DNA of 64,000 nucleotides from a bacterium (lineage in GTDB: Bacteria > Auribacterota > UBA3054), in contig JAGCTE010000006.1 of NCBI GenBank assembly GCA_017963805.1, forward strand, positions 5,118 through 69,117, read 5' to 3'. Position 1 is the stretch's first letter, and each line of letters opens with the position of its first letter. Shown here piece by piece: positions 1 through 52,467 of the stretch. Below the pieces are notes generated by a model. The model was not told the DNA's origin and made no database searches. It worked only from the letters and a program-made list of their open reading frames with translations. The translations under genes were made by a program, and so were the position numbers.

Positions 1-392
1 GGCAGTATCGTCACAAAGCGGCTGAGCGTTTTCGTTTCCACGTCGGTCGTTATCGTTTCCTTAAGAGCATAAGTTTCGTTCTTGGGAAGCGAGGCATATT
101 CGGAATCGTAGTAATCCCAGCACACCGTGCCTTCCGCTTCGTCGGAAGTCGTGTCGGAAAAGACGAGGCCGGACTGCTCAGGATCGGAAGCGACCTCCGC
201 CTTTATCACAAGAGACTTCATGTTGCCGCCAGCCAGAGCGCTGCAGTAATAGAGCTCGTCCGTGTGCAAAAGCAGTATGGGCTCGTCCGTTATTGGCGCT
301 CCGTTAAAAGAAGCGTTCCCGGACCAGCAGTCCTCGCCAAGCGCCGCGCCGCAAATTAGCGCGGATACAAAAAGCAAAAGAACTCTTTTCAT
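1..392 (-). CDS. Partial small secreted protein running off the left window edge. It is a paralog of the N-terminal PEP-CTERM module of the 5734..7434 product.
   Basis: Not in the ORF track because it is truncated by the window edge. The reverse complement from ATG at 390..392 reads MKRVLLLFVSALICGAALGEDCWSGNASFNGAP...ETKTLSRFVTILP. This is collinear with MKNILFAGLVALFCLAAFCDECWSEAGSFDGNEL...FACTVTILPEP of the 5734..7434 product. It has a signal peptide, a CWS..SF(D/N)G motif and the TILP(EP) start of a PEP-CTERM tail. Confidence 0.5.
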   Translation of the reverse strand, partial: MKRVLLLFVSALICGAALGEDCWSGNASFNGAPITDEPILLLHTDELYYCSALAGGNMKSLVIKAEVASDPEQSGLVFSDTTSDEAEGTVCWDYYDSEYASLPKNETYALKETITTDVETKTLSRFVTIL

Positions 393-2397: not shown

Positions 2398-4350
2398 TTA
2401 TTCTCCTTTTTCCTCTGCCGGGACGATGCTTTCGACTTTGACATCGCCGCGGCCGGATCCGCCTTTCTTTACATTTTTGGAGACGGTCTTCTTCACTTCT
2501 TCCACCGTCTTTTTCGGCTTGGCCTTCTCGGATTTCTTGGTGGCTTCCAAGGTTTCCTCTTTGGCTTTTTCAGCGTTGCGGATCCTGTCCCTTTCGGCCT
2601 TCTCCTCTCTTTCCTTGGCCTCCCTTTCCCTTTCGGCGTCGGCTAAGGCTTTTTCGGCGATCCTTTTCGCCTTGGCTTCGGCTTCCGCTTTGGCTTTGGC
2701 CTGGTATTCTTCCCAGAGAAGTCCGCTCTCGACGTCGACTTGCTGCATTTTGAGGGTCGCTTTGTCCTCGGGGGCGGGCATGAGGCGCCACTCGACTTTG
2801 CGGCCGTCTATGACTTCCGTTTGCGGAGCGGAAGGAGGCGTTGAGGGGTTGGAAACTATTACGGGCGCGCCGCTATTGTCCTTCTTTACGACCGTCATGG
2901 TCATTTCGTTCTGCTTAGGCTGCTGCGGAGTTGTCGGCTGGACAGTTTTGGCAGGCTGCGCCGCGGGCTGGGCCGTTTGGACGGCCGGGGCGGAAGGGGC
3001 GGTCTGCTTTGGCTGCTGAGCCTGGCCTTGCTTGGCGGCGGCCATCTGCCTGAGGTACGCGTCGAAATAATTGTAGGTCGGCTTGGCGGTCGCGGGCCTG
3101 GGGCCGGAAACCGTCTCGCCCTTTACGAGCTTTATGATGATGTCGAGGGCCTGGGGCATGCAGAAGTAGCCGAGGTGCGAGCCGTGGTCGAGCATGACGA
3201 GGCGGTCGCCCATCTGGCGCTTGAGCCAGTTGCGGTCGTAGTCGTTCAAAAGGAAGTCGTCGGCGGTGTGCAAGCAGACGATGTTTCGGTTCTGCCTGAG
3301 CTCGTTGGCCATGGCCGGGAGGCTGCAGATGCCGTTGACGTGCTTGAAGGGCTCGCTGGTCGCGAAGATCGTGGGATGCGCTTCCTTTAGGAAGGTGTCG
3401 ACGTAGCGCTGGTAGCCGTAGCGCTCCAGTTGCTTTTCGAACTCCTGCTGCTTCCAGCTGGAGACTTCGCCGAAGATCTCCATGGGATGGCGCTCGATGA
3501 TCTTTTTCATAACGTCGCCCAAAGACATCCTGAACGTGAAGCCGATGACGAACGAAGCCTGCTCTTCCGTAACGGGAAGGTAGGTGTCGGTCTGGAGGGC
3601 ACCGTAAGAGTAGCCCTTGTAGAAGCCGACCGCCATGTTGCGGTTGTTGGTCAAAGTCACGGCGTCCCAGTTTTTCCAAATGCCGTAGTATTTGTCCAGA
3701 GTCGTCAAACCGTAGATGAGGTTGACGGGCGGATTAAGGAGCACGTAGCGCTTGACGTTCAGGCGGTGCTCTATAACGTCGTTGCGGGTAAGGAAAGCCG
3801 CCTGCAGGGCGCCCAGAGAATAGCCGACGACAGTGATGTCCTTCACTTTCCCGGGATGCTCCTCGTTGATGTCGTCGAGGACCCTGGCGATGTGATGGTA
3901 GAGGTCCTTGGCGTCGCTTCTGGTGTAGCCGGGAGCCATGCTGGTCAAAGCGGACTGCGTGAATTCCCAGCAGAAGGGGTTGCTTACTATGGCGACGGAA
4001 AAGCCTGCGTTGAAGATGGCTTCCGCCAAGAGCGCGGCCTGCGAGTTGCGGTAGTGGTCGCCTAAGCCGGGCACGATGAAGACGAGGTCCGCCGGCTGCT
4101 TCTGCATCCAGACGCTGTAGCGGGAATCGACTTCTTCTTCCTGGCCGTCAATTTTGTTGGTGAATTTGACCTTGCCTTTCTCGACGTCGAAATAGAAGTC
4201 GTTGTCCTTGAAGTTCGCCAGCTTGTAGCGGAAGGAGTCGACGACGGGGCCCTGGGCCGGGAAGTTGGTCAGGGCTATGTAGATCTCGCCGCTGGCGGCG
4301 AGCGTCCCCAAAGAGACGAGCAGGGAAAGTAATGCTATAAGTTTTTTCAT
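2398..4350 (-). CDS. Secreted alpha/beta-hydrolase-fold esterase/lipase-like protein with a long low-complexity C-terminal tail.
   Basis: N-terminal signal peptide MKKLIALLSLLVSLGTLAAS. GXSXG nucleophile-elbow motif in VVGYSLGALQAAF. The C-terminal ~200 aa are a P/Q/A-rich then K/E/A-rich low-complexity region. Confidence 0.55.
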   Translation of the reverse strand: MKKLIALLSLLVSLGTLAASGEIYIALTNFPAQGPVVDSFRYKLANFKDNDFYFDVEKGKVKFTNKIDGQEEEVDSRYSVWMQKQPADLVFIVPGLGDHYRNSQAALLAEAIFNAGFSVAIVSNPFCWEFTQSALTSMAPGYTRSDAKDLYHHIARVLDDINEEHPGKVKDITVVGYSLGALQAAFLTRNDVIEHRLNVKRYVLLNPPVNLIYGLTTLDKYYGIWKNWDAVTLTNNRNMAVGFYKGYSYGALQTDTYLPVTEEQASFVIGFTFRMSLGDVMKKIIERHPMEIFGEVSSWKQQEFEKQLERYGYQRYVDTFLKEAHPTIFATSEPFKHVNGICSLPAMANELRQNRNIVCLHTADDFLLNDYDRNWLKRQMGDRLVMLDHGSHLGYFCMPQALDIIIKLVKGETVSGPRPATAKPTYNYFDAYLRQMAAAKQGQAQQPKQTAPSAPAVQTAQPAAQPAKTVQPTTPQQPKQNEMTMTVVKKDNSGAPVIVSNPSTPPSAPQTEVIDGRKVEWRLMPAPEDKATLKMQQVDVESGLLWEEYQAKAKAEAEAKAKRIAEKALADAEREREAKEREEKAERDRIRNAEKAKEETLEATKKSEKAKPKKTVEEVKKTVSKNVKKGGSGRGDVKVESIVPAEEKGE

Positions 4351-5555
4351 TCGTCGATCTCCGCGCTTCTCTTAAGGTACCACATGTCTCTGGCGAAGGA
4401 GTAGGGATCGCCGTTGTCTATAAGCATGCTGTCGATGGAATCGACCTGAAGGCTGATGTTGTTCATGACCATGAAGGTCTTGACCATGCCGCCGAAGGGC
4501 AGGTACGTCCTCGGGTCCATGGCCTCGTCGAAGATCATGCCGACCGTGTCGCGGGCGGTCAAAGGACCGGCGATGGGCAGGAAGATATAGCAGCCGGGGC
4601 CGATGCCGTAATAGCCGAAGGTCTGCCCGGTGTCCTCGTCGTATTTTTCAAGGTCGAACCAGGCTTTGGCAGGGTCGAAAAGACCGCCGATGCCGACGGA
4701 CGTGTTGATAAGGAAGCGGGCGGTCTCGACGCCGGCTCCTTTGAATTTAGCCTGAGCGAGGTTGTTTATGAGTCTTTTGGGCCAGACGATGTTGTGGTCC
4801 ATTTGCGAGATGCACTCTCTGGCCACGGTGGGAACGACGAAACGGTATCCTTTGCAGACCGGGCCGATGAAGTAGGTGTAAGCGTAGTCGTTGACGACGA
4901 ACATGCAGCGGTTGAAACGCTCTATCGGGTCGTCGACGAAAAGTTCGTCGGAAAGAAGCGGCGCGGCGTCGTCCGCGTCATAGTCGTGGGAGATCTGGCT
5001 GTAATCCATGTAGTCTACGTAATCGCCGCCCACAACATTCTGCGGAGGAAGCTCAACAGTTTCCTGCTTGGGCGGCTTGGGAGGGTCCAGCTCCCGGAGC
5101 GTCACTTTCGGCAGAGCCTCAATAAGCTCCACCATATCCGGAGTGTCCAGCTTCGGGGGGTTGACCTTCATGTAGACCTTGTGGTCCAGTTCCTTGTACG
5201 GCGTGTAGAAGACCACGTTCGTTGTAAAGTTCGTGACAGAAACGTTGATGTAGTAGTCCTTCGTCTCGAAGCGCCTGACGCCGCCGGTGACCGTCACGGT
5301 CTCTATGGCCAGCTTGTAGTAGACGGAATCGGGAAGATTGGCGTCCACTCTCTCCCAGTTGGAGCTGGAGTTCATGACGACGTTCGTCACGTAGCGCGCC
5401 ACGCTCATGGTCTGCGTCTGCGCGGAGATAGTTCCGGGCGTGACCGTCTGCATGGTGACTTCGGCGTAGGCGAAGGCGCCGAAGAGGGCCGCCGCGGCCA
5501 AAACGCCGAGACGGAACCTTAGATCCTTTTTGTTTTCTCTCATTTTTATTCTCAA
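4347..5555 (-). CDS. mlaA: MlaA/VacJ-family outer-membrane lipoprotein with an extra N-terminal domain.
   Basis: The C-terminal half matches MlaA/VacJ conserved blocks (NRCMFVVNDYAYTYFIGPV, NLAQAKFKGAGVETARFLINTSVGIGGLFDPA, GYYGIGPGCYIFLPIAGPLTARDTVGMIFD). Signal peptide and hydrophobic N-terminus. Confidence 0.65.
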   Translation of the reverse strand: MRIKMRENKKDLRFRLGVLAAAALFGAFAYAEVTMQTVTPGTISAQTQTMSVARYVTNVVMNSSSNWERVDANLPDSVYYKLAIETVTVTGGVRRFETKDYYINVSVTNFTTNVVFYTPYKELDHKVYMKVNPPKLDTPDMVELIEALPKVTLRELDPPKPPKQETVELPPQNVVGGDYVDYMDYSQISHDYDADDAAPLLSDELFVDDPIERFNRCMFVVNDYAYTYFIGPVCKGYRFVVPTVARECISQMDHNIVWPKRLINNLAQAKFKGAGVETARFLINTSVGIGGLFDPAKAWFDLEKYDEDTGQTFGYYGIGPGCYIFLPIAGPLTARDTVGMIFDEAMDPRTYLPFGGMVKTFMVMNNISLQVDSIDSMLIDNGDPYSFARDMWYLKRSAEIDE

Positions 5556-5613: not shown

Positions 5614-5650
5614 GCAAAAGAAAAGGCCGCCCGACCGGGCGGCCTTTCTT
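5614..5650. terminator. Bidirectional rho-independent terminator hairpin ggccgccc-gacc-gggcggcc with T-rich flanks.
   Basis: GC-rich inverted repeat at 5625..5644, flanked by a T8 run on one side and tttctt on the other. It lies 3' of the minus-strand 5734..7434 gene. Confidence 0.6.
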
Positions 5651-5733
5651 AATCGCTCTCTCAGCCTCGCTTTCAGCCCGTGCGTCTAGCTAACACCCGC
5701 GCCGCGCCGCGGCTGAAAACGAGCAGGGACAAT

Positions 5734-7434
5734 TTATTTGACTAGGAACACACGGAAGCCGACATCTACGTAGCCGTGAGTGGAGCGGATAAAACGGAAG
5801 GCGGAGCGGCATAAAGAGGCTTTGGATGAATAACTTCCCCCCCGGACCACACGCTGATAATTTGTGCTCGCTCCCGCGGGATCGGTCTCCGCGCCGGTGT
5901 AATCGCCGTAGATATCCAGACACCACTCATACACGTTCCCGTGCATATCGTACAAGCCCCAGGCGTTGGGCAGATACGAGCCGACTTCGGTGTGTTTGTC
6001 GTCATATCCCCCTTTGCCGTCGGATATATTCGAAGCGTATCTGCCAAGTTTGTTCAATTCCGGATCTTCATTTTCATTTGTTATATACGTCCCGTTGTTC
6101 CATGAGGTCGTCGTTTCCGCCCTGCAGGCGTACTCCCACTGAGCTTCCGTCGGCAGGTCAAAATCAAATCCGGTCTTGGCGCGCAGAATGCCCATGAAGG
6201 ATCCTTCGTCTACCGCGTTGTTAGCCGGCCAGCTTAATCCAGTATTGTCCCCGCGGATATCGTCGTATGCAACTTGTTCCGCCGGCCTCGTATAGCCAAC
6301 ATGTTCGAACGGCCTGGTATCGAGGGCGGTTTCGCTACAGTCCATGACCAATTCATACTGTCTTTGGGTAACTTCGAACACGCCGGCATAGAAAGGTCTG
6401 GTCAGCGTCACTTTGTGCTCAACTTCGCGGGCGAGTCTGCCTATTTCGCCTTCGGGACTTCCCATGATGTATGTTCCCGCAGGGATCACGCGCAGGACCA
6501 GCTTCGTGGTCTTGTACTCTTCTGTCCAGCCGCCTTCTGGCACATCGGCAAGGTAAGACACCGGAAAACTTTCCGCGTCTTTTCCACCGGAAAGGTCTAT
6601 GACCATGTAAGTCTTGGCACTGTCAATTGCCTCGGCCTGTACCTTAACTTTGAACTTGTCGGTTTTGACGGAGTTAAAGCTTTCGTCCGGGATCCAGATT
6701 ACTTTGTGGTTTCCGGAGCCGCAGAAAGTTTCGTTGAGCGAAGAACAGAGCGCTCCCTGAAGCGTGCCTTTTTCCTTAAGCTCGAAAGTCGTTTCGCCGT
6801 TGTCAACGGAACCGTAGAACTTCATGTCATAAACCGTATTCGCGTTCGCGGGAGTCATCGTATAATTTATGACTACGTTTTTGGAACAGGGCTTGATCTG
6901 CAGGAAGCTGATGTTCCCGACGACACCGTCGGCTTTGGCGCTGAAAGAAGAAACACCGACAAGCGCCAAAATCGCGGCAAGAACTTTAACGCGCCTGCGC
7001 AGGAAAAGCGCGCCGACTATCGCGAAGATCGCGAAAATCGCCGGCTCGGGCAAAATAGTGACCGTGCAGGCGAAGGCTTCGCTAGACCTGGAGCTGGTGA
7101 CGGTCTCGGTCATCTCGTAGGTGGCGTTCTTGGGCAGATAAGAATATTCCAAAGCTCTGTAGTTCCAGGTAGTCGTTCCTTCCAGCGCCGTTCCGGTAGC
7201 GTCGGAAAAGATTTCGGCAACTATGGTCTCGTCTGATTCTTTGACCGCTTCTATGGTCAAAGAGACCGGAGCGCCGTCCGCCAGGGCGCTGCTGTAGGCT
7301 ATAGGGTCGGTGGGTTTCAAAACTATTGTCGTAAGCTCGTTTCCGTCGAAGCTGCCGGCTTCCGACCAGCACTCGTCACAGAAAGCGGCAAGGCAGAAAA
7401 GAGCGACTAACCCGGCAAACAAGATATTTTTCAT
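5734..7434 (-). CDS. Fusion or read-through protein. N-terminal part is a small secreted PEP-CTERM module (~146 aa). An in-frame second signal-peptide-like segment and a formylglycine-generating enzyme (FGE/SUMF1, sulfatase-modifying) domain follow.
   Basis: aa 1-146: signal peptide then ...CTVTILPEPAIFAIFAIVGALFLRRR, the classic PEP + TM helix + Arg cluster. No stop codon follows. The frame continues VKVLAAILALVGVSSFSAKA (signal-peptide-like) into an FGE domain: GTYIMGSPEGEIGR ... WEYACRA ... GLYDMHGNVYEWCLD ... RVVRGGSYSSKASLCRSAFRFIRSTHGYVDVGFRV. Confidence 0.7.
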   Translation of the reverse strand: MKNILFAGLVALFCLAAFCDECWSEAGSFDGNELTTIVLKPTDPIAYSSALADGAPVSLTIEAVKESDETIVAEIFSDATGTALEGTTTWNYRALEYSYLPKNATYEMTETVTSSRSSEAFACTVTILPEPAIFAIFAIVGALFLRRRVKVLAAILALVGVSSFSAKADGVVGNISFLQIKPCSKNVVINYTMTPANANTVYDMKFYGSVDNGETTFELKEKGTLQGALCSSLNETFCGSGNHKVIWIPDESFNSVKTDKFKVKVQAEAIDSAKTYMVIDLSGGKDAESFPVSYLADVPEGGWTEEYKTTKLVLRVIPAGTYIMGSPEGEIGRLAREVEHKVTLTRPFYAGVFEVTQRQYELVMDCSETALDTRPFEHVGYTRPAEQVAYDDIRGDNTGLSWPANNAVDEGSFMGILRAKTGFDFDLPTEAQWEYACRAETTTSWNNGTYITNENEDPELNKLGRYASNISDGKGGYDDKHTEVGSYLPNAWGLYDMHGNVYEWCLDIYGDYTGAETDPAGASTNYQRVVRGGSYSSKASLCRSAFRFIRSTHGYVDVGFRVFLVK

Positions 7435-7757: not shown

Positions 7758-9461
7758 TTAGCGCTGCTTGCGGGCGGCAAAGAGGCCTATGAGGGCCAGG
7801 ATGCCGAGGAAAGCGGGCTCGGGCAGCGTGCCGGACTTGATCAGCTCGACCTTGAAGTTGTCGATGTAGTAGCCGTCGGAGCCGCTGAAGGTGTAGTTGC
7901 GGAACTGCAGGAAGTTCTCGTTGTCGCCGGCGGCGCCGGGAACGTACTCGTTGTCAAAATGGTAGGTCTCGCCGTCGAATTCAGCGTAGTGCAAAACAAA
8001 GGGGCGGGATTCGTCGCTGGCAAGGCCGATGGTGAATGTGTAGGCCACGTTGAACCACTGGCCGTAGGGGGCCAGATTGGGAACGTCGACGTTCTTGAAG
8101 GGTTCGCCGCCCATCTTGATGCCGCCGGCGGTGTGGCTCATGCTGACTTCACCCATCCTGTGGGAGAGGTCGGTGCCGAAGACCAGGTACGGCGTGACGC
8201 CTTCCGGATAGTACATATCCATGGAGACGCGGACGTCATAGGTGGGATAGATAACGTCAGGCATGTTGACCGCGGTGTGGATCTGTCCGGCGCCCGTGAT
8301 CTTCAGGCACTGGTTGCCGGCGTCTTCGGGGTCGGCCGCGATCGCGTTAGCGGCGCCGGTCTCGCCCCAAGCGGGCTGAAGTTTGACATCGCCGCCCAGA
8401 GGCATTCTCTCGAAGTCCGTGGCGTAGAGCGCCCAGCCCAAGCCTTTGTTGCCGTTCTGAGCCACGACGGAATGCGTGAAGGATTTGTCTTCTTCGCCGT
8501 TGTAATAGGAATAGGTGATGGTGGCCGCGGGCATGTTTCGGACCTGTTCGGGCAGGTTGGCGGTAAGGCCGATGGACACGGGTTCACCGGGAGCGACTTC
8601 GACCTGCTTGGTGAACTCGCCGTTCATGGAGAGCCAGTTGTCATCCGAATCGATGTCAACGGTGACGGTGGCGGAAGCGCCGGTGGCGGAGATCACGGTT
8701 TCAAGGCCTTCGGCCTCACCGAGCTTCACGACGCCGGGAGCGCTGGCGGTCACGTTGGCGGTGGGAGGAACATCGACGAATTCGCATTTGAAATCATCGA
8801 TATAGATGCTGGCGCCGCCGCCCCAAAGGAACGTTCTAAAACGACGGAATTTGTCGGGAGCGGTCTGGCCGCCCATGGGGATGTTCAGATTTGAGTAGGT
8901 CACGTCGCCGAAGGTGCATTCGCGAAGGAAAGCGCCGTTGGCAACGGTGTTGAAGGTGTAGCTGAAATAGACCCACTCGTCGCGGGGCTCGGAATTGTCA
9001 AGCGTCAGCTGCGGGGAGGTCGAGCTGAAGCGAATGCCGAACTGGCCGTCTTTTTTGATCCAGTGGTTCTCGCCCAGGCCGTCGTTGCTGCCGAAGATGA
9101 TGTCGCCGGTGTATTCGCCGGAACCGTCGGCTTTCTGCGTCGGACGCTTGACCATCATGGAGACTTTGTAGTCATACTGGGAGGACTTGCCGCCCACGTT
9201 GTCAATGTCGGTGTGAGTGCCGAACAAATTGTCCTTGGCAAAGATGTGGAGGCACTTGCCGCCATTGTAGCCGCCTTCTTCGACGATGGCGTTGTTGTTT
9301 TCCGTCGCGCCGGTGTAGCAGATCGACCAGCCGTCGAGGCCGATGATGCTAGTACCCGCTTCATAACCTTCGAAATCGTTTTCGTAGATCGTGGAGGGTT
9401 CAGCCTGCGCCATAGCCGCGCAAAGCAGAAGCGCGGTGGTTAAAACTAGAGCTTTTTTCAT
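7758..9461 (-). CDS. Secreted PEP-CTERM (exosortase-sorted) surface protein, function unknown.
   Basis: Signal peptide MKKALVLTTALLLCAAMAQA. C-terminus SGTLPEPAFLGILALIGLFAARKQR is a PEP motif + TM helix + basic tail. Beta-rich G/T/S/D-rich body. Confidence 0.75.
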   Translation of the reverse strand: MKKALVLTTALLLCAAMAQAEPSTIYENDFEGYEAGTSIIGLDGWSICYTGATENNNAIVEEGGYNGGKCLHIFAKDNLFGTHTDIDNVGGKSSQYDYKVSMMVKRPTQKADGSGEYTGDIIFGSNDGLGENHWIKKDGQFGIRFSSTSPQLTLDNSEPRDEWVYFSYTFNTVANGAFLRECTFGDVTYSNLNIPMGGQTAPDKFRRFRTFLWGGGASIYIDDFKCEFVDVPPTANVTASAPGVVKLGEAEGLETVISATGASATVTVDIDSDDNWLSMNGEFTKQVEVAPGEPVSIGLTANLPEQVRNMPAATITYSYYNGEEDKSFTHSVVAQNGNKGLGWALYATDFERMPLGGDVKLQPAWGETGAANAIAADPEDAGNQCLKITGAGQIHTAVNMPDVIYPTYDVRVSMDMYYPEGVTPYLVFGTDLSHRMGEVSMSHTAGGIKMGGEPFKNVDVPNLAPYGQWFNVAYTFTIGLASDESRPFVLHYAEFDGETYHFDNEYVPGAAGDNENFLQFRNYTFSGSDGYYIDNFKVELIKSGTLPEPAFLGILALIGLFAARKQR

Positions 9462-9655: not shown

Positions 9656-9955
9656 ATGACTTATGAGATCACCTCTCCTCCTCCGGATCTGACGGTCACC
9701 GTCCAGGGCCGCCTCGACACGCTTACCTCCCCCAAACTGGAAAGCGAACTGGAGCCGAGCATCGCCCAGGCCAAGAACCTTGTTCTGGATGTTACCGGCG
9801 TGGATTACCTCTCCAGCGCCGGGCTGCGCCTGCTTCTTACCTTGCAGAAACGTTTCAAAAGGGAAGGCGGCAGCTTCAAGCTTCGCGGCATCCAGCCGGG
9901 CGTGATGGAGATACTCCGCATGACGGGCTTTTTGAAGATCCTATCCGTTGAATAA
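9656..9955 (+). CDS. STAS-domain anti-sigma-factor antagonist (SpoIIAA/RsbV-like).
   Basis: 99 aa. Conserved phosphorylatable Ser context DYLSSAGLRLLL. First gene of a 3-gene operon with a PP2C phosphatase and an anti-sigma kinase. Confidence 0.8.
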   Translation: MTYEITSPPPDLTVTVQGRLDTLTSPKLESELEPSIAQAKNLVLDVTGVDYLSSAGLRLLLTLQKRFKREGGSFKLRGIQPGVMEILRMTGFLKILSVE

Positions 9956-9964
9956 GCCTGCTTT

Positions 9965-11827
9965 ATGCGCCGATCATTTCAATTGTGGCTTTTTGTTTCC
10001 GTGGCGCTCGCTTTCGCCGCGCTCTTCTATCTGACCTATTACCTTCAGACGAAAGAGGCTTTCGGTTCCGCGGAAGCCATGATCGAACTGAGGATGGACG
10101 ACGCCAAGAAGCAGATCGCCATCAACGAGAACAACCTCAAAGCCGTGCTTGACATCTGCAACGCCTCGATGGCCAACGACGTCAAGACCGTGGCTTATAT
10201 CCTCTCGTGCGCGCCGGCCTTCGCCACCAACGCTTACAAGCTGGAAGAGCTGCGCCGCGTCATGGGCTACGACGAGGTCCACATCATCAACAGGCACGCG
10301 CTTATTGAGAACAGCGCCATCGATCCCGTCCTTGGCAACGCGGAAAACTACATCGGCTTCAATCTTAAGCTTCACGCCCAGTCCGAACCCTTCGTCCACG
10401 GCATCGGCAAGCAGGATTTCGTCCTGGTCCAGCCGCCTCTGCCCAGGGGAATGGACCGCAAGCTCTTCCAATACGGCGGCGCTTCCAGACTCGACGACGA
10501 AGGCATCGTGCAGCTTGGCATCTCCGTCAGCTTCCTGGAAAAAGCGATGGAAAACAACAGTTTGGCGACCCTTTCCCCCGGCTTGCGCATCGGCGTTGGC
10601 GGAGAGATCCTTATTGTGCGCGGCGAAAAGATCGTCGGCGCCGCCAGGGTCGACCTTGAAGGCCGCACGCTCACCTCCGTAGGATTGGATCCCGAGCTCA
10701 TATCCAAGCTCCATCAGGGCGAGGGCTCTTTTTCCGCCGAGATAGACGGCGTGGATTTCTTCGGTTTGTATGTTCAGAGCGGCGACCTTACGCTCCTTGG
10801 CGTTATGCCTACCTACGAGGTTACGAGGAAAAGGAACAGCATCGCCATCCAGCTTGTCATTTCCGCCCTGGTTTTGATGCTGGTCGTCTTCCTCTCCGTT
10901 TCGAAGCTCGTCCAGGTCATAGTTATAGACGGCATCGACCGCATCAACGCTTCCCTTGGACGCATCACGGCCGGCCACCTCGACGAGAAAGTCACGGAAA
11001 ACCGCTCCAAGGAATTTGAGGAGCTCTCCGGCGGCATCAACACGACGGTGGAAGCCCTCAAGGGCGCCATCGCCGCGGAAAAGACGAGGCTGAACAGCGA
11101 GCTGGAATTCGCCCGAGCCGTCCAGATCTCCGCGCTGCCCCAGATCCACGACGACCCGCGCTTCGAGATCTTCGCCTCCATGGAAGCCGCGAAAGAAGTC
11201 GGCGGCGACTTCTACGATTTCTTTATCGTTGACGAGTCGCACCTCGCCTTCCTTATCGCCGACGTTTCCGGCAAAGGCATCCCGGCCGCCATGTTCATGA
11301 TGAACGCCAAGGCGCAGCTGAAATCGAACATCCTGAACAACCCCCAGAAGCCGCTGGACGAAGTGATCTACGAGGTCAACAACAGCATCTGCGAAGGCAA
11401 CGACGCCTGCATGTTCGTGACCGTCTTCGTCGGCGTCCTCGACCTTAGAAGCGGGCTTATGAACTATGTCAACGCCGGCCACAACGCCCCCATCATAAGG
11501 CGCGCTAACGGCGACGCCTCCTGGCTGCCCGTGGAAAACGGCTTCGTGATAGGCGGCATGGACAGCGTCGACTACATCCAGGAGTCCGTCACCCTCTCTC
11601 CCGGCGACGGCATACTCCTTTACACCGACGGCGTCACGGAAGCCATGAACCGCCAGCTCGCCCTCTACGGCGACGACAGACTGATATCCCTCATGGACGG
11701 CCCCATCATGCGCTCCGCGCCAACCGACTGCATTCTTGGCGAACTGAAAAGCGACGTTTCGGCCTTCGCCGACGGCGCCCCTCAATCTGACGATATAACT
11801 ATGCTCTTCCTGCATTATTTGGGATAA
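9965..11827 (+). CDS. Membrane sensor PP2C-type serine phosphatase (SpoIIE/RsbU family) with an N-terminal periplasmic sensor region, TM helix and HAMP-like linker.
   Basis: The C-terminal PPM domain reads FEIFASMEAAKEVGGDFYDFF, AFLIADVSGKGIPAAMFM and LLYTDGVTEA. There are N-terminal and internal TM segments (LWLFVSVALAFAALFYLTYYL; IAIQLVISALVLMLVVFLSV). Confidence 0.8.
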   Translation: MRRSFQLWLFVSVALAFAALFYLTYYLQTKEAFGSAEAMIELRMDDAKKQIAINENNLKAVLDICNASMANDVKTVAYILSCAPAFATNAYKLEELRRVMGYDEVHIINRHALIENSAIDPVLGNAENYIGFNLKLHAQSEPFVHGIGKQDFVLVQPPLPRGMDRKLFQYGGASRLDDEGIVQLGISVSFLEKAMENNSLATLSPGLRIGVGGEILIVRGEKIVGAARVDLEGRTLTSVGLDPELISKLHQGEGSFSAEIDGVDFFGLYVQSGDLTLLGVMPTYEVTRKRNSIAIQLVISALVLMLVVFLSVSKLVQVIVIDGIDRINASLGRITAGHLDEKVTENRSKEFEELSGGINTTVEALKGAIAAEKTRLNSELEFARAVQISALPQIHDDPRFEIFASMEAAKEVGGDFYDFFIVDESHLAFLIADVSGKGIPAAMFMMNAKAQLKSNILNNPQKPLDEVIYEVNNSICEGNDACMFVTVFVGVLDLRSGLMNYVNAGHNAPIIRRANGDASWLPVENGFVIGGMDSVDYIQESVTLSPGDGILLYTDGVTEAMNRQLALYGDDRLISLMDGPIMRSAPTDCILGELKSDVSAFADGAPQSDDITMLFLHYLG

Positions 11828-11842
11828 ACAAGGAAACGACCT

Positions 11843-12253
11843 ATGAACGTAGCTGTAACTCTGCAATTCTCGGCTGAAACTAAGAACCTCCCCAACGTTC
11901 TGGAACAACTGGACACCCAGCTTCTCGCCGCGGGCTGCCCCGAAGACGCCAGGATGCAGCTGGCCGTAGCCGTGGAGGAGATCTTCGTCAACATCGCCAA
12001 CTACGCCTACGAGGGCAAGCTCGGCTCCGCCACCATAAACATCAAGGCGGACGCCCACAAAGCGACCGTTTCCTTCGCTGACAGCGGTTTCCCCTACGAT
12101 CCCCTGAAGAAGGAAGACCCCAATATCGAGCAGGCCGCGGAGGACCGCCCGATAGGAGGGCTCGGCATCTTCCTTGTCAAGGAAATGTGCGACGAGGTCC
12201 ATTACGAGCGCCGCGGGGACATGAACCTTTTGACCATCGTCAAAAAGTACTGA
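11843..12253 (+). CDS. Anti-sigma regulatory factor / serine-protein kinase (RsbW/SpoIIAB-like, HATPase_c).
   Basis: 136 aa. GHKL ATPase motifs (EEIFVNIANYAYE; DRPIGGLGIFLVKEMCDEV). It is operonic with the STAS and PP2C genes. Confidence 0.75.
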   Translation: MNVAVTLQFSAETKNLPNVLEQLDTQLLAAGCPEDARMQLAVAVEEIFVNIANYAYEGKLGSATINIKADAHKATVSFADSGFPYDPLKKEDPNIEQAAEDRPIGGLGIFLVKEMCDEVHYERRGDMNLLTIVKKY

Positions 12254-18216: not shown

Positions 18217-21375
<3,159 letters not shown>

Positions 21376-21418
21376 TCAACCTAAGAAGTGCTAACATATC
21401 TCGCACAAAATGAAAAAC

Positions 21419-21495
21419 GCGCCCGTGGCTCAATTGGATAGAGCGTTTGGCTACGGACCAGAAGGTTAGGGGTTCGAGTCCCTTCGGGCGTACCA
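21419..21495 (+). tRNA. tRNA-Arg (anticodon ACG), CCA encoded.
   Basis: Hand-folded cloverleaf. Acceptor stem GCGCCCG/CGGGCGT (one G-U pair). D-arm GCTC-AATTGGATA-GAGC. Anticodon arm TTTGG-CTACGGA-CCAGA, so anticodon ACG. T-arm with GTTCGAGTC. Ends ACCA. Confidence 0.85.
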
Positions 21496-21532
21496 TATTT
21501 TCCGCCGGAGTTTCCGCTCCGGCGGTTTTTTT
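21438..21532 (+). repeat. 95-bp direct repeat, copy 1. It comprises the 3' part of tRNA-Arg (D-loop to CCA) plus the downstream terminator. It is identical to 28363..28457.
   Basis: The atagagcgtttggctacggaccagaagg...ccggcggttttttt stretch is identical in both places. The flanks diverge immediately outside it. Confidence 0.9.
21502..21532 (+). terminator. Rho-independent terminator after tRNA-Arg (ccgccggag-tttccg-ctccggcgg + T7).
   Basis: Perfect 9-bp GC-rich stem immediately followed by ttttttt. Confidence 0.7.
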
Positions 21533-21562
21533 GTTTTCAAATTGTGAACGCACCGCGTTCCA

Positions 21563-21589
21563 AATTCGTGGCACACTGTGCCACGAATT
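21563..21589. promoter_or_regulatory. Perfect 27-bp palindrome AATTCGTGGCACA-c-TGTGCCACGAATT. Candidate dimeric protein-binding or recombination site.
   Basis: 13-bp arms are exact reverse complements around a single central nucleotide. It sits 31 bp after the tRNA terminator. Confidence 0.4.
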
Positions 21590-21638
21590 CATCAAAAAGC
21601 GCTGAAAACAGTTAAATCATTGGTCACACGCAACTTCA

Positions 21639-21665
21639 AATTCGGTACACACTGTGTACCGAATT
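21639..21665. promoter_or_regulatory. Second perfect 27-bp palindrome AATTCGGTACACA-c-TGTGTACCGAATT, related to the first.
   Basis: Same outer half-sites (AATTCG...CGAATT) and the same central ACACTGT, 76 bp from the first copy. Both are preceded by ttcaaattcg / tccaaattcg. Confidence 0.4.
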
Positions 21666-21725
21666 CAGTACAAAGACAGGCTCGCCATAAATTGCAGATG
21701 ACCGGAAATAGCGCTCAGATATAAT

Positions 21726-23627
21726 CTACTCTGTTTGTCGGCGTTGAAAAACGTTGTTGTTAAGAACGCGATTCGTAGCGATATTCAAAGGTATTTCAAA
21801 ATTCTTCGGCCATTTGTGAGTTGCCGCGTCAAACATCTCTTCTCTGAATTCAGATCCGTCTTTTTCCATAGCCTGCGCAAGCACAGAATTAAAGTCCTGT
21901 TCATCAAGCGGATGTTCCTGACAATAACGCCATAGAGTTTCCTCACACTGCCAACTTATCCCGGAATTTTTCAGATCCTCGTCCGCTTTTTCGCCGCCGT
22001 AGCGCAAAGCTTGCTGAACGTTTTTGACATAATTGGTCTTGTCGCGAACAATCTGTGCGTAAAGAGCCGCGTTTTTGTGTCGCTTCCATTCCATCATGGA
22101 AAAATCTATGCTCGGAACATCAACCATAGAAAGTGTGAGAGCGCTGTAACTCTCACCGCGCTCACGTAAAAGTTCTGCCGCCATTATGTAAGCATAGGAA
22201 GTATATGTTAAGCATGTCGGATACTTATGTACGCTAAGCAAGTGAGACAAAGCCGCTGCCGAACGGTCTTCCTCAGTAAATCCAAAATCAAAGCGATGAA
22301 TTTCATGGAGCATTCTCCCGAGGAAAAAGTGCGCAGCCCCTTTGGTAAAACCATCTGAATTTTCCGGCAAAAGGAAAAAATTCATGAGGGTATAGGCCTT
22401 TTCATAATCTCCCTGCCAAAAAACGCTTTCCGCTTGCCAATACAGACGGCCTGCCGCTCCCGAGATCGCAAGTATACCTTTATATTTTTCACAATCTTCC
22501 AATCTATCTGAAGCATCAGCGATTCGCGCCTCAAACTCATCTATTTCGACAAAACGCTCAATATAATCGGACAAAGTCAGCGCGTTTGTCTCGCGCTGAC
22601 GCTGTTCCGGACTCCATAAATAAGCCGATGTTTCAATTATATTTTTCCAAGGTATAGCCTCGCTTCCTTTAAGAGAGAGATTTTTAGACCATTCCTCTCC
22701 TTCTTTTTTCATTTCTAAAAAAGCGTCCGGGATTTGCCTTCTTTCGTCCAGGAAATTTTCAGCGCTCTGTATAAAACGCATGGCATAAATCAAAACAGGC
22801 ATGCGGTTTTTATTATTTTGCTGTCGCAGCGCATAATTTTTCACATTATCTATGGCATCTAGAATCTTAATTTTTTCGCTGGAATTAGTTACGCAAAGGT
22901 AGGCGTCAAGGCAGGTTTTCGCTAAATTTGGAAAAGCGTTAACATTAACTTCCATCCACTTTTCCAAAAGTTGTAATTTTTCGCCTTCCGAAAAACCGCC
23001 TTTCAAAACAAGATTGAGCGTCGTCTCAAAATCAAGAGATTTGTCAGCACTCCTTAAAGATAGAATAAATTCACGCACTTCCTCGGTAACTTCAGGATGT
23101 TTTTCTCTAAATGAAAGCAGATACTCAATCTGGGGTTTATCAAGATTATCATACATGATAACCTCTTCATAAAGACGAAGGGCGTTTTTGATATCGTTTT
23201 GCTTGACGTAATATCTCCGCAAAGCTTGCTGGGCGTACTTGTATGAGAACCAGCGACGGCCGGCGGCTTTTTCACGGTATTTTTCCAAAACTGCCATCAG
23301 CAAAGCCGGAGCATTTCTTTGCGTTTCTGGGTCTTTCAAACTATAGACCGCGGCCAAACTTTCCAACACAAGATCTAAAGGTTCTCCGTTGGAAAGGAAA
23401 ACGCCCCTGCTCTCTTCGGCTTTAGCGGCAGCGTTAGCGAGTTTGACGGCTGTCCGCCATTGCTTTTCCTTGGCCGCATTTTCTATTTTCAAGCAACGTT
23501 CTGTCAGCCAGACGCTTCCTGTTATGTGAGGGCTGACAAGCCAGACACCCCTCTGAATATCTATGTTACCCAGGGAAAAAGAAGCCCATATGAAACTTAA
23601 GAAAAAGCAAAAAGTGTTCTTCATCAC
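21726..23627 (-). CDS. Family-D secreted helical (TPR-like) protein, copy D1, in the tRNA-flanked island.
   Basis: 633 aa with a signal peptide. The C-terminal ~250 aa are clearly homologous to the 62301..63560 product (YEKAYTLMNFFLLPENSDGFTKGAAHFFLG vs CKKAYRCMNYFLLPENKDDFSVGAAHYYLG; KYPTCLTYTSYAY vs QYKTCLTYIAYSY; TNRVLNN in both). The N-terminus is homologous to the 63557.. partial product. Confidence 0.6.
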   Translation of the reverse strand: MMKNTFCFFLSFIWASFSLGNIDIQRGVWLVSPHITGSVWLTERCLKIENAAKEKQWRTAVKLANAAAKAEESRGVFLSNGEPLDLVLESLAAVYSLKDPETQRNAPALLMAVLEKYREKAAGRRWFSYKYAQQALRRYYVKQNDIKNALRLYEEVIMYDNLDKPQIEYLLSFREKHPEVTEEVREFILSLRSADKSLDFETTLNLVLKGGFSEGEKLQLLEKWMEVNVNAFPNLAKTCLDAYLCVTNSSEKIKILDAIDNVKNYALRQQNNKNRMPVLIYAMRFIQSAENFLDERRQIPDAFLEMKKEGEEWSKNLSLKGSEAIPWKNIIETSAYLWSPEQRQRETNALTLSDYIERFVEIDEFEARIADASDRLEDCEKYKGILAISGAAGRLYWQAESVFWQGDYEKAYTLMNFFLLPENSDGFTKGAAHFFLGRMLHEIHRFDFGFTEEDRSAAALSHLLSVHKYPTCLTYTSYAYIMAAELLRERGESYSALTLSMVDVPSIDFSMMEWKRHKNAALYAQIVRDKTNYVKNVQQALRYGGEKADEDLKNSGISWQCEETLWRYCQEHPLDEQDFNSVLAQAMEKDGSEFREEMFDAATHKWPKNFEIPLNIATNRVLNNNVFQRRQTE

Positions 23628-24508
23628 AACATTGCCAGCGCCTCCACACGGCGCAATTCGCCAATAACAGAAACGATTAAGGGGAGCCTTTTCTTATCAT
23701 CTTTTTGCTCTTGCAGCCATTGTCTCAGAGCCCGGCAATAATCTCTTATAAATTCTGGTTTTTTAACGTCAAGTACGCTAGCCGCTCCAACTATAAAACA
23801 GTTCATTTCGCTTTCCCCGGCACAAGAATTATTTTTTAGCCAAGAGATTATTTTTTCTTGTTTCTTCTCCGCTGATATATCAGAGCGCAGAAAATCTCCT
23901 ATCATGAACAGCGCGTCTTTTTCTCCGGAAAAATCATCTAATAATTCCCCCAACCAGGTTACGCTATACGGCCTTTCCGCCGCTGCGTATAAGATGGTCA
24001 TCAAAGCGATTTTAGACGAAGAGTCATAAGCGAGCCATCTTCTGGCTGTCAGATCATGCGACCGCACGTCTCCCAAAGTCCAGTAATACGACATCAAAAC
24101 TCGAAAAAAGTCGACGTAACGAGCAGAAAACTTTTCTTCCGACAGTTCTTTAAATTCTAGCAAGGCTTTTTCCGTCAGTTTGGGCAGTTCCGGATCGTCG
24201 CGCCGAGCTTCGCTCAAGCATTCTATTTGGGTCAACCGTAAAGTAAGCGCCAGATCTTCTCCGCAGGCCAATTTTATACCAGCCACGGCTGAATCTAGCT
24301 TCTCACATTCAACGGACGCTCGCAAAAAATCCTTGCTTCGCATCAGCGCTTCTATGCGTAGTAAGCCTTCCTTTATAAGGTCGTCCTCTCCTTCATAATG
24401 CCGGCTGACATAACGCACGCCTTCTGTCTTTTCGCATCCGAAAACAGATCCCGCACAAAATGCCAAACAACAGCAAAATAAGAAGAGGCAAAGCTTACCC
24501 GGATTCAT
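23624..24508 (-). CDS. Hypothetical secreted protein (island cargo).
   Basis: ORF 23624..24577. The probable start is the internal MNPGKLCLFLFCCCLAFCAGSVFG signal peptide. No recognisable domain. Confidence 0.4.
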   Translation of the reverse strand: MNPGKLCLFLFCCCLAFCAGSVFGCEKTEGVRYVSRHYEGEDDLIKEGLLRIEALMRSKDFLRASVECEKLDSAVAGIKLACGEDLALTLRLTQIECLSEARRDDPELPKLTEKALLEFKELSEEKFSARYVDFFRVLMSYYWTLGDVRSHDLTARRWLAYDSSSKIALMTILYAAAERPYSVTWLGELLDDFSGEKDALFMIGDFLRSDISAEKKQEKIISWLKNNSCAGESEMNCFIVGAASVLDVKKPEFIRDYCRALRQWLQEQKDDKKRLPLIVSVIGELRRVEALAML

Positions 24509-25797
24509 TTTCTTCTGTGCAGGCAAAGCAGGCCAAGAATCACCAATCCAAGCATGCCCGGCTCTGGCAGTTCCCAAGCCAGCGTAGGCAGAGAAACGCC
24601 TTCTTCGATATACCAGACATGCTCAAAATCCCAGTTTTCAAAGGTTACTTCGCTTTTTAATTCGTCATGAGTTTTAGCAATAGCAAACGAATCATCCAAA
24701 CCGAATGTGGTGGTATCGAAATAGCAATTTGTAACAGTCAAGCTCTTTACTGATTTGAAAGCTAAAAATCCGCCGGTGTGTTTAAAATCTCCTTTTATAT
24801 TTCCTGTAGCATAGCATCTAGAAATGTTAACGCTCACATCATTTATGTAGTTTGTGGTTGAAAAATTTGGGGAAAATGATAGAGAGCCAATAAATCCTCC
24901 CGCAAAAGTCTCACGCCCTGGAAAAGAAGAATCCATTTCCAAATTGAACGCCGCATAGCAGTCCTCAATAGAGAACTCTGCATTGCCATCAGCAAGGAAA
25001 AAGCCAATTAACCCGCCAGTTTCACCAAAACCGGAAGAATATTCAGTATCATTCTCGGCATAGCAACGCGATATTCTCAAATGCGAATTTGTTTCCATCC
25101 TTATCTCACCTATCAACCCCCCTATAGAAGATTGTCCATTCACATGAACTCTGGCCTTGCATTGAGAAATAGAAATTGAATTGTTATATTGGGCATAGAC
25201 CTGGCCAATTAATCCGCCTATTCCTTCAACGGCCACTTCTTTAGGCATTTTTGATTCTATGGTTCCGCTAACAGAACAATTTTCAATAATGGAATTTCCC
25301 TGAGCTTTTCCAACCAAAATACCGGAGCCAAGCCGCCCACAATACTGGACTTCAGCGTCTTCAATCACTATGTTTTTTAAATGAAAATTCCCACATCTAA
25401 AAATACCAACATTTTCTACATATTCCATCGGCATTCTGATGTATGGGTTTTTGATGGCAAAACCTTGCCCATTATAATTTAAAATAAAAGGTTTTATATT
25501 TAAAATTCCAGAATAAGCAGTCATTATGACAGGAAATCCGCCTGCTTCACTCCACTCTTCGCCTTTGGTTTCCGAAGCCAAGATATCCTGCGTCTGCTTG
25601 CAATAAACGGTGGTTCCTTCCTGAAAGGTAGAAAGATTTTCGCTTAGCCAAACAAAGTTTTCCAAGCAAGCAATCTCATACGGACTATCTTCCGTCCCGT
25701 CTCCTTGCGGCTTCACAGGCGTCCTGTCGGCAAAAACTGCAACCACGCACAGAAAACTAAGAATTAAAAATATTTTTTTCATTGTAAACCTCCTCAT
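24505..25797 (-). CDS. Family-A surface protein, copy A1. It has GLUG-like (GG[LF]IG) repeats, likely a beta-helix, with a PEP-CTERM anchor.
   Basis: Signal peptide. N-terminal PxGDGTEDSPYEI..LENFVWL motif. Repeated GGLIG/GGFIG and I..CY motifs. Conserved C-terminal TFENWDFEHVWYIEEG block. Tail LPEPGMLGLVILGLLCLHRRK is a PEP-CTERM. Paralog of 49789..50976 and 53444..54655. Confidence 0.7.
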   Translation of the reverse strand: MRRFTMKKIFLILSFLCVVAVFADRTPVKPQGDGTEDSPYEIACLENFVWLSENLSTFQEGTTVYCKQTQDILASETKGEEWSEAGGFPVIMTAYSGILNIKPFILNYNGQGFAIKNPYIRMPMEYVENVGIFRCGNFHLKNIVIEDAEVQYCGRLGSGILVGKAQGNSIIENCSVSGTIESKMPKEVAVEGIGGLIGQVYAQYNNSISISQCKARVHVNGQSSIGGLIGEIRMETNSHLRISRCYAENDTEYSSGFGETGGLIGFFLADGNAEFSIEDCYAAFNLEMDSSFPGRETFAGGFIGSLSFSPNFSTTNYINDVSVNISRCYATGNIKGDFKHTGGFLAFKSVKSLTVTNCYFDTTTFGLDDSFAIAKTHDELKSEVTFENWDFEHVWYIEEGVSLPTLAWELPEPGMLGLVILGLLCLHRRK

Positions 25798-27170
25798 TCG
25801 GGATCTGGGGTTGGATCCGGGGCCAAGACAAAACGGCTCAGAATCGGACTGTTAATTTGTTGCGCTCTATATAGAATCTTCGGTCGCCCGAAGAAAAATG
25901 TATTGACCATTGACCAACTGGGATAACAGCCCCATCGTTGATCAGGAGGCGCTTTACGCGCCGCCAACGCGCTGGCGTATTCTATTATGTCGGCGCCGAA
26001 GTCAGACACATTGTTATTGAGTAGAAAATTTTCTGACCAAATCGGACTTTGATAAAAAGCAATGTCATCAATTCCGAAATTCATCGAATGATTTTTATTC
26101 CCAAATGTATCTTGACTGATACAAAGTAATGATATGCCTTCATAAATATAGTTTGTTGGAGAGTAAATGTCCGGACACAAAGGTTCGCAAGGCGTCACCA
26201 CGAAAGGTGTTCCATATGCCTCCCAAGTCGGATCCACCGCCCAGGCAACAGAATTAAAATTGGTTGCCACATCTTCTCTAAATATTCCCCATTCGCAACC
26301 ATCAAAATTGCATCCCAAGTTGGCAAATATAGTCCGTTCAGTTAGAGTAGGTCGCGAGGCTGCTAAGACCGCATAGGCATGGTATTGTAAATCAAGTAGT
26401 TCTCTTCCGTTAAAACGAACTTTCAAAGATCCTGTCGGGCTTGAATAATATAAATCTCCATGTCGTTCCATGAACATGTGGTATCCATCAGCGTATTCCT
26501 CCAACCACGTTTGCAAATCGCAATTTTGAATAATAAAATGCTGAGGATAATAATTATTTTTCCGGGTATCACCCCACAGTTTATAACCGCCGGAAGTTAT
26601 TATTTCCAATTTTCCTGGACCAATATACAAATCAGAATCTCTGACCCAAATTTTAACGCTGAGAAGATCATTGTCGTTCCTGTTCATTTGAACATCATCA
26701 TGATCTGGAGTCCCGTTCTTGTTGTCATCATCAAAATTCCAGTGAATAGGAACAGTAACTTGATCGCCAGTGTGCATCCCGTCTATTCCTCTCCTTTGCG
26801 AACTTAAAACAATATCCCTGTAATAAATATATTTTTCTTTTTCCAAGTGACAGATACGTCCTGTAGGATAAATATAATCAACACGAGCATAAGCAACAAG
26901 AACTACAGGCTCGCCTATATAACTTATGGTCAACGGGTTATACACGCTTGTACTCATAAGCTCGTTTCCCCACAAATCTCTTATTAAAAATACATTGGAA
27001 GTCACATCTCCCGAACAGTTAAAACTAACGGTAAACGTGTTGTTAGTTGTTCCTACCGCGACGCGAAACCTACCAAAAATGTCAATAGAATCCGGCACGT
27101 TTGCTAATGCCGCTTTGGCAAAACAAAAAGTGAACAATACAATTGAATGCAATATTATGTTTCTTTTCAT
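25794..27170 (-). CDS. Family-B secreted protein, copy B1 (HWNFDDDN / CEW motif family, function unknown).
   Basis: Signal peptide MKRNIILHSIVLFTFCFAKAALA. Shares VPIHWN(I/F)DDD(D/N)K and DGCEW motifs with the 50996..52432 and 59056..61059 products. Confidence 0.6.
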   Translation of the reverse strand: MKRNIILHSIVLFTFCFAKAALANVPDSIDIFGRFRVAVGTTNNTFTVSFNCSGDVTSNVFLIRDLWGNELMSTSVYNPLTISYIGEPVVLVAYARVDYIYPTGRICHLEKEKYIYYRDIVLSSQRRGIDGMHTGDQVTVPIHWNFDDDNKNGTPDHDDVQMNRNDNDLLSVKIWVRDSDLYIGPGKLEIITSGGYKLWGDTRKNNYYPQHFIIQNCDLQTWLEEYADGYHMFMERHGDLYYSSPTGSLKVRFNGRELLDLQYHAYAVLAASRPTLTERTIFANLGCNFDGCEWGIFREDVATNFNSVAWAVDPTWEAYGTPFVVTPCEPLCPDIYSPTNYIYEGISLLCISQDTFGNKNHSMNFGIDDIAFYQSPIWSENFLLNNNVSDFGADIIEYASALAARKAPPDQRWGCYPSWSMVNTFFFGRPKILYRAQQINSPILSRFVLAPDPTPDPE

Positions 27171-27171
27171 T

Positions 27172-28140
27172 TTACTCCTCCTTTTCCTTTAAGGATTCTG
27201 AGATAGCTTTCCTTACATCTTCGAATTCATATTCTTCCTTTTCGGGAAGTCTGTAATACCAGTAATTGTGATCGGGATGCTCAAAATAGCTTTCCATTTC
27301 TCTATGCCAATTAGGCATTTGTTCCATTACCCATGGTTCAAGCCGCATCTTACCATTAGCCAAGGCTCGTTCTATGCGCGCCCAACCTTCGGCATCTTGG
27401 AGGGTATATTTTTCTCGATTTGTTTCCCACCATTTTGCGTAATCTTTTCCTATTTGCGGATATCTATAGCCCTTTTGGAAAGGCTTTATAACCGCTTCTA
27501 AACTCTTGTCTCCATTTAGAAGCTCTTTGAAAATATACGGAAAGATATGATATCCCATGGAAGTAATGTCGCTGATAAGAAAAGACAAAATGAACTCCCT
27601 CGGATTTTCCCTCCTGTTTTCCTCCTGTCAGCAAGCATACCAGGCCTGCCAAATTTTTGGCATGTGTTTTCTTCCATATACGTACCAGAAATAATACAAA
27701 TCATCGGCACAGAAGATCCTATCGTCCTCTTTGCAATGGAACCAGGAGAAGGCCATGCATTTTGGCGCTTCATAGCCAAATTGCAAACCGCCGTGAATTC
27801 GCATCTGCTTTAAAACAGCTTCTGCCACTGTTCCAGTGGCGTACCCGTTACCGTCACAATATATTCTGGTCTCGACATCTATGCCCCAGCCGTCTTCTAC
27901 CAACTCAGTTAATTTTTCCCAAGCCTCAGAAGGCGACAAACTTTGCAACTGAATACGCGCCTCAAAACCCTCTTTGAACTGTTGTTTAATTTCACCAGGA
28001 TGCTTGTCCCAAGAAAAATCTTCCTTTTCAAAGATAACTACAGGCGTGTTCTCGGCCTTGATGAGCAAATTTGTATATGCCGCCGTCTCTATTCCAAAAA
28101 CCGGAATGGATAAGCATAAACATAAAAGCATTTTCTTCAT
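27172..28140 (-). pseudogene. Family-C secreted protein, copy C1, interrupted by a single in-frame TGA at a conserved Trp codon (28140..27631 plus 27627..27172).
   Basis: ORFs 27628..28140 and 27172..27588 are in the same frame. Across the junction the sequence reads WYAC*QEENRR...GYHIFPYIF, versus intact paralog C2 WYRCWQEENSR...GFYIFPYLA. The TGA at 27628..27630 replaces the TGG that all other copies have. Confidence 0.6.
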
Positions 28141-49722: not shown

Positions 49723-49788
49723 TTCTACGAGTTGTTTTTTATAAAATATTCTAGAAACGGTTTTCATTTTATTATCGAGGGACATGTT

Positions 49789-50976: not shown

Positions 50977-50995
50977 AAGGTCAACAGGAAATCAC

Positions 50996-52432: not shown

Positions 52433-52467
52433 ACCCGGAAGGTAATTCTTTGGAGGAGGAATAAAAT

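Follow-up and report, generated by a model that had tools for sequence, protein, structure and literature searches.

A PEP-CTERM-like sorting unit inside a conserved fusion protein of rumen bacteria

The gene at positions 5734..7434 (minus strand) of a 64,000-nucleotide stretch of contig JAGCTE010000006.1 (assembly GCA_017963805.1, a bacterium of the Auribacterota; the whole stretch is referred to below as the window) encodes a protein of 566 amino acids (aa) in which the equivalents of two secreted proteins are joined in a single reading frame. The N-terminal half is a small module with a PEP-CTERM-like sorting unit at its end, and the C-terminal half opens with a signal-peptide-like segment and closes with a domain of the formylglycine-generating enzyme (FGE) fold. 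This arrangement is a conserved fusion of genes in rumen bacteria, and not an artefact, a lost stop codon or the product of an internal start. The reading preferred here, with a probability of about 0.6, is that the gene specifies a secretory polyprotein, from which two products would be released by an exosortase cut at the PEP motif and a signal peptidase I cut at AKA/D (slashes mark predicted cleavage sites throughout).

Architecture and conservation of the fused gene

The open reading frame is unbroken over 566 codons and a stop, which bears out the preliminary description of this DNA, where an internal PEP-CTERM signal was said to be fused in frame to an FGE-type domain. In order along the chain, and all on the minus strand, are a predicted N-terminal signal peptide (aa 1-19, 7378..7434; MKNILFAGLVALFCLAAFC/DE), a beta-sandwich cargo domain of about 108 aa (the N-module; aa 20-127, 7054..7377), the internal PEP-CTERM-like unit (aa 125-148, 6991..7062; VTIL-PEP-AIFAIFAIVGALFL-RRR), the signal-peptide-like segment ending in AKA/D (aa 149-168, 6931..6990), a second beta-sandwich (aa 170-270, 6625..6927; VGNISFLQIKP..., with a QxxP motif in which Q179 and P182 are invariant) and the FGE-fold domain (aa about 276-562, 5749..6609). 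The junction reads ...CTVTILPEP-AIFAIFAIVGALFL-RRR-VKVLAAILALVGVSSFSAKA-DGVVG..., and the second half of this linker divides into RRR-VK-VLAAILALVGV-SSFSAKA-DGVVG. The PEP-CTERM-like unit stops at codon 148, two codons beyond the 146 first allotted to it, and the junction lies at nucleotides (nt) 6990/6991.

A hydropathy scan resolved three hydrophobic segments, at aa 4-22, 127-145 and 149-167, with Kyte-Doolittle (KD) values of 2.08, 2.22 and 1.69 respectively. The first coincides with the predicted signal peptide, which has a predicted helix at aa 2-13 and small residues ahead of a conserved DExWS motif, where cleavage would take place. No lipobox was found at either signal-peptide segment: at the first site an F or L occupies position -1, and the second lacks a Cys at +1. 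An AlphaFold2 (AF2) model built on 59 homologues (mean predicted local distance difference test (pLDDT) score 82) comprises an all-beta sandwich at aa 20-127 (pLDDT about 80-94), short helices at 132-144 and 149-161, a second beta-sandwich with strands at 172-269 and an FGE fold from about residue 276. The two short helices sit between well-folded domains; their confidence is low, as is usual when membrane segments are modelled by themselves.

The fusion is retained well beyond the genome in which it was noticed. The exact 566-aa protein occurs on 12 contigs, at least six of which come from different metagenome assemblies. A scan of species-representative genomes, made with a narrow alignment of the junction (A4), located it at 12 loci (L007-L018) in seven ruminant-gut metagenome-assembled genomes (MAGs) from goat, sheep, yak and water buffalo, with the frame open throughout wherever the contig extends. 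The near-identical reference MAG RGIG3546 (L007; 99% over the junction) carries two more fused paralogs on other contigs (L009 and L011). Among the 120 best-scoring homologue clusters, 84 contain the internal PEP unit, and dozens of clusters keep the frame at 35-97% identity. The source contig holds three fused paralogs within about 11 kb. One, of 577 aa (L001:17043-18776), stands in tandem with the neighbourhood of the window gene and has its own internal PEP unit and FGE domain; it is followed on the minus strand by a fused paralog of 843 aa (L001:18978-21509) with two FGE-fold domains. The window edge clips the 577-aa gene at 'VTIL' and leaves its 5' portion at 1..392 (minus strand). This fragment had been cited as a sign that the small module exists independently. 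It is indeed paralogous to the N-module, at 43% identity, but does not prove an independent module, because the full gene on the source contig is itself fused.

To assess conservation of the junction, 59 full-length relatives were aligned, the most distant of them at 35% identity. P129, E130 and P131 (7042..7050) are invariant in all 59 sequences (entropy 0), and the PEP region is the best conserved stretch of the junction. Conservation is at least 90% at T126, G141, R146, R148, A166 and A168; K or R occupies position 147 in 57 of the 59; K150, L152 and A154 are also conserved, and D169 is frequent at +1. The hydrophobic cores of the linker are free to vary. An alignment of orthologues was the check that the preliminary description had suggested, and in these sequences it shows no stop and no conserved start codon between the modules, with a PEP motif conserved beyond coincidence.

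These data decide between the three origins that had been put forward for the joined frame, of which only a programmed fusion survives. A lost stop, frameshift or assembly error peculiar to this genome might be suspected, given that relatives have unfused pairs of genes with a spacer of mere 23-28 nt. Such an accident is practically excluded by the identical protein on 12 contigs, the open frame at the 12 MAG loci and in the homologue clusters, and the neighbouring fused paralogs. An internal non-ATG start, by which translation beginning at the junction would also, or alone, supply the FGE-fold part as a separate protein with a normal signal peptide, draws on the resemblance of the stretch after RRR to a complete signal peptide. 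It is very improbable: codon 149 is GTT in the window gene and encodes V (26/59), T (15/59) or A (14/59) in the family, with Met in only one member, and an internal start is therefore not conserved; initiation at the closest in-frame TTG (L156) would leave the signal peptide truncated and devoid of an n-region.

Relatives of the two halves

Membership criteria for the PEP-CTERM/exosortase system (TIGR02595; Haft and colleagues) are listed in bioRxiv 10.1101/2023.06.07.544157, and the window protein shares several features with the system. The P-E-P signature opens the unit, a hydrophobic helix (aa 132-145, KD 2.22; predicted helix 132-144) follows, and an Arg/Lys cluster ends it; the same chain bears the predicted N-terminal signal peptide, with its conserved small-residue site; and such proteins are present in many copies per genome, with at least four canonical examples in the window, recognized by their C-terminal tails (7758-9461 and 24505-25851 on the minus strand, 49723-50976 and 53417-54655 on the plus strand). 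The difference lies in position. Canonical signals stand at the extreme C-terminus, whereas this one is internal (aa 125-148 of 566), leads straight into a second signal peptide and has 418 residues after its basic cluster. When excised, the segment scores 16.4 bits with TIGR02595 (curated cutoff 16 bits), and the true C-terminal tails of N-module relatives score 16.4-19.7 bits, apart from the tail of P0173, which gave no hit.

A profile search with the N-module through 1.84 billion representative proteins returned only 60 relatives, which marks the family as a small one, restricted to a lineage. These relatives include two classes. In the first, which numbers about 20 full-length fused proteins as well as fragments, the chain continues for more than 390 residues beyond the basic cluster. 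The second comprises 17 representatives that end 0-10 residues after the basic cluster and thus have a C-terminal PEP-CTERM; their modules are single (154-173 aa) or arranged in two to four tandem copies, and a sample tail ends ...VTILPEPGMMLVALAATLCALVKRF before the stop codon. Judged from these sequences, the N-module is real PEP-CTERM cargo, and the motif inside the window protein shares its ancestry with genuine PEP-CTERM signals at C-termini. The AF2 model of the module (pLDDT 83) gave only weak, generic matches of the immunoglobulin (Ig)- or fibronectin type III (FN3)-like kind, and no significant match among solved structures.

The C-terminal domain belongs to the FGE fold by sequence (Pfam PF03781, aa 316-562, E-value 3e-35) and by structure (Foldseek matches to FGE structures, E about 1e-12), which upholds one part of the earlier reading of it as a full FGE sulfatase-maturase domain. 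The other part fails on the catalytic cysteines. C542 occupies the position of human C341 in 56 of the 59 sequences, and the position of C336 is never Cys, being Ser in the window protein and variable across the family. A true FGE or sulfatase maturase is therefore unsupported, and with one of the two catalytic cysteines of FGE absent the domain is unlikely to act as a maturase. Its best sequence and fold matches are FGE-fold proteins that are not FGEs, namely PvdO (5hha; sequence E 2e-19), Treponema denticola variable protein 1 (2y3c) and PorK/GldK (9mzu); 5hha and 2y3c rank ahead of true FGEs in Foldseek, at E about 1e-16. These proteins are periplasmic or surface located, a placement also expected of the window protein. 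The domain differs from PvdO and GldK in falling far short of their NCBIfam equivalog cutoffs (103 against 500 and 78 against 350, respectively).

Both halves are found as neighbouring separate genes in relatives, which upholds the preliminary view of an exosortase-substrate-like module followed by a signal-peptide-like stretch. Standalone module genes with readable downstream DNA (L022, L024, L028 and L029) are followed in all four cases by a separate gene 23-28 nt past the stop. The partner genes open with a signal peptide ending in ALA/D or FA/D (for example, MKKALYLSILTATLATMALA/DNAATGLSSQQRWPWNGKVDIDYTL) and the motif 'VS.V..QRWPWNGKVDI', and then carry the second beta-sandwich also found in the window protein. 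A PF03781 FGE-fold domain is present in both complete partners (L022 and L024); the partners at L028 and L029 are clipped by the contig end. The unfused partner family runs to about 80 clusters. A further standalone C-part, P0038, has its own ATG and is preceded by an unrelated gene and a terminator. Because the two halves occur as adjacent separate genes in relatives, the window gene can be identified from sequence as a Rosetta-stone fusion of an adjacent operon pair. In such fusions, genes that are adjacent in some genomes form one reading frame in others, implying functional partnership; the present case differs from the usual ones in that membrane topology and two processing sites must survive, and not the reading frame alone.

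The fusion has probably arisen at least twice independently. The nearest relatives of the unfused partner include another fused clade, made up of 37 clusters and with IKLLPEPAMLFLIPLLFLLRGARKVKFFLPALLIALVSFEAAA/DVVSGVTCRQRWPWNG at its junction. When C-parts were placed in a neighbour-joining tree, all members of the window clade were fused, and this second fused clade, like a small third one (P0152/P0155), fell among unfused genes. Its N-module (that of the second clade) has 40-45% identity to proteins with a C-terminal PEP-CTERM (E about 1e-30), as against at most 33% to modules of the window-clade type (E about 1e-8). In both halves, then, the closer kin of the second clade are unfused genes and not the window clade, which favours repeated fusion.

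One relative of the unfused partner, P0324 (411 aa), has an N-terminus resembling the signal peptide of the module gene (MQKILLFFVALGFCTLL...) joined directly to the end of the partner's signal peptide; it appears to be a deletion variant in which the whole N-module has been lost.

Export and cleavage of the precursor

The segment after RRR has the pattern of a Sec-type (signal peptidase I) signal peptide, with a basic n-region (RRR-V-K), an h-region (VLAAILALVGV) and a c-region (SSFS-A-K-A/D) ending in A-x-A; a helix is predicted at aa 149-161. Unfused orthologues and the standalone P0038 open with M-K-K...ALA/D in register with it, and the predicted mature N-terminus, D-x-V-S/G-x-V...Q..P, is likewise in register between fused and unfused forms. 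Mature C-part of the window protein would start at D169 (DGVVGNISFLQIK...). With an h-region of only about 12 residues and a polar c-region, the segment is signal-peptide-like rather than a membrane helix of 19 or more residues.

The preferred reading, a secretory polyprotein, can be traced from two ancestral genes. The first would have encoded a small secreted beta-sandwich protein with a C-terminal PEP-CTERM exosortase signal, and the second another secreted protein, in which a signal peptide of its own preceded a beta-sandwich and an FGE-fold domain. Once the stop codon and the spacer of roughly 25 nt were lost, the deletion would have brought the basic PEP-CTERM tail (RRR) up against the basic n-region of the next signal peptide, and the merged basic stretches would form one short cytoplasmic loop. 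In the resulting precursor, the N-terminal signal peptide would launch Sec export of the N-module, and the PEP-CTERM helix would act as a stop-transfer sequence (N-out, C-in) with RRR-x-K held in the cytoplasm, a topology proposed on the basis of the positive-inside rule. The second hydrophobic segment would then restart export (N-in, C-out) of the remaining chain. Exosortase would cleave at PEP and signal peptidase I after A-K-A (A168), yielding the same two mature proteins as the two-gene layout, in a 1:1 ratio, and leaving a membrane-embedded hairpin of about 37 aa to be discarded. Retention of both ancestral processing steps is the simplest reading because PEP and A-x-A are the most conserved elements while hydrophobic residues drift. 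The preliminary description held that a PEP-CTERM signal in this position should not be processed in the usual way; this expectation finds no support, and the topology together with the conserved cleavage motifs argues that processing is retained.

Several points weigh against the polyprotein. TIGR02595 gives only 9.9 bits in the full-length protein, under its cutoff. A search of the window and of the 10 kb beyond it for an exosortase brought up neither a polytopic candidate nor a hit in Pfam or NCBIfam. The model would require an exosortase to accept a basic tail that runs into another membrane segment; sortase-type systems are not known to demand a free C-terminus. The A-x-A motif is read as a cleavage site from the (-3,-1) rule and collinearity. 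Lastly, the neighbour-joining tree of C-parts has no support values, so that repeated fusion is suggestive only.

The failure to find an exosortase nearby would also suit an uncleaved hairpin anchor, in which the gene product remains a single inner-membrane protein with two periplasmic domains, and PEP and A-x-A are relics of the fusion; the mere four to five basic residues between the two helices agree with this. Relics should decay, yet among relatives with as little as 35% identity PEP stays invariant and A-x-A keeps a conservation of at least 90%, with the cores free to vary, and both motifs are retained in the second, probably independent, fused clade. The short h-region and polar c-region described above also fit a signal peptide better than an anchoring helix, and such a hairpin is on balance improbable.

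A single cleavage, with only one of the sites in use, could take either of two forms. Signal peptidase might free the FGE-fold part and leave the N-module anchored in the membrane, or exosortase might free the N-module and leave the FGE-fold part held by an uncleaved signal anchor. Each motif is conserved by itself, as this would predict, and exosortase may require a free C-terminal tail. Since both motifs are equally strongly conserved, and the unfused pairs yield products separate from each other, a single cut is nonetheless an unlikely alternative to the two cuts of the polyprotein.

The boldest form of the polyprotein reading, with slightly less than even odds, makes the linker a modular hairpin composed of a sorting signal and a signal peptide. 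One Sec-exported chain would be cut by two different membrane enzymes into a surface-sorted module and its FGE-fold partner, in a fixed 1:1 ratio, and the design would have evolved more than once through fusion of the same operon pair.

Genomic surroundings and wider meaning

The window gene is followed by a terminator-like GC hairpin and U-run about 80 nt past its stop codon (5614..5656, minus strand; folding free energy -27.6 kcal/mol, z -4.5). A consensus terminator scan did not pick up this hairpin, which folding shows clearly. Further along on the minus strand, a secreted protein resembling alpha/beta-hydrolases (2398-4350), whose long C-terminal tail is of low complexity and rich in Lys, Glu and Ala, adjoins MlaA (4347-5555) and an ABC-F type ATPase (472-2388). 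A partner-switching module at 9656-12253 consists, by its Pfam labels, of a STAS anti-sigma antagonist, a SpoIIE-type phosphatase with an N-terminal membrane or sensor region and a HATPase_c_2 anti-sigma kinase.

Two of the four canonical PEP-CTERM proteins in the window carry GLUG motifs (PF07581), and the pair at 49.7-54.7 kb flanks two open reading frames (50966-52432 and 52465-53427) that have no family match. The content of guanine and cytosine (GC) falls to 0.42-0.48 at 20000-28000, 48000-56000 and 60000-64000, compared with about 0.55 elsewhere; secreted or PEP-CTERM proteins of no known function cluster in the same stretches, which could have been acquired as islands. A putative dnaA gene lies at 39142-40518, and a confirmed dnaN at 40911-42005. 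Because gene orientation switches and the AT skew changes sign at about 40 kb, the replication origin is probably in the gap at 38.4-39.1 kb.

In a literature search of incomplete coverage, neither an internal PEP-CTERM signal nor a link between PEP-CTERM and the FGE fold was found to have been described. A bacterial parallel is the cytochrome b-c1 precursor FbcH of Bradyrhizobium japonicum, which was studied by Thony-Meyer and colleagues and is reportedly a polyprotein with an internal signal after a membrane helix, cut by signal peptidase to give products in a 1:1 ratio; FbcH differs in having no sorting signal, a polytopic membrane protein as its upstream part and a single processing enzyme. 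Glycoprotein precursors of flaviviruses and bunyaviruses contain repeats of a stop-transfer helix, a short basic loop and an internal signal peptide that is cut by signal peptidase. They differ in operating in the endoplasmic reticulum of eukaryotic hosts and in having no exosortase-type step. If both cuts occur in the window protein, it would represent a rare bacterial case of this viral stop-transfer and internal-signal logic.

The conserved pairing and the repeated fusion argue that the N-module and the FGE-fold protein act together; it may be speculated that the FGE-fold partner is displayed, as a 1:1 complex, through the sorted module. Terminal position is what defines C-terminal sorting signals (LPXTG, PEP-CTERM, GlyGly-CTERM and MYXO-CTERM) and guides their annotation. 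Annotation pipelines will miss internal ones, and these proteins are named only as 'formylglycine-generating enzyme family protein'. A conserved, probably repeatedly evolved, internal PEP-CTERM offers a natural means of testing whether exosortase depends on a free C-terminal tail; under the polyprotein reading, recognition by exosortase would not need a C-terminal signal. The fusion and the operon pair tie a lineage-specific PEP-CTERM cargo to an FGE-fold protein and so offer a lead to the function of both, and if the polyprotein is processed as proposed, there would be a functional tie between an FGE-fold family and PEP-CTERM cargo, the former perhaps serving as a binding partner on an anchored module.

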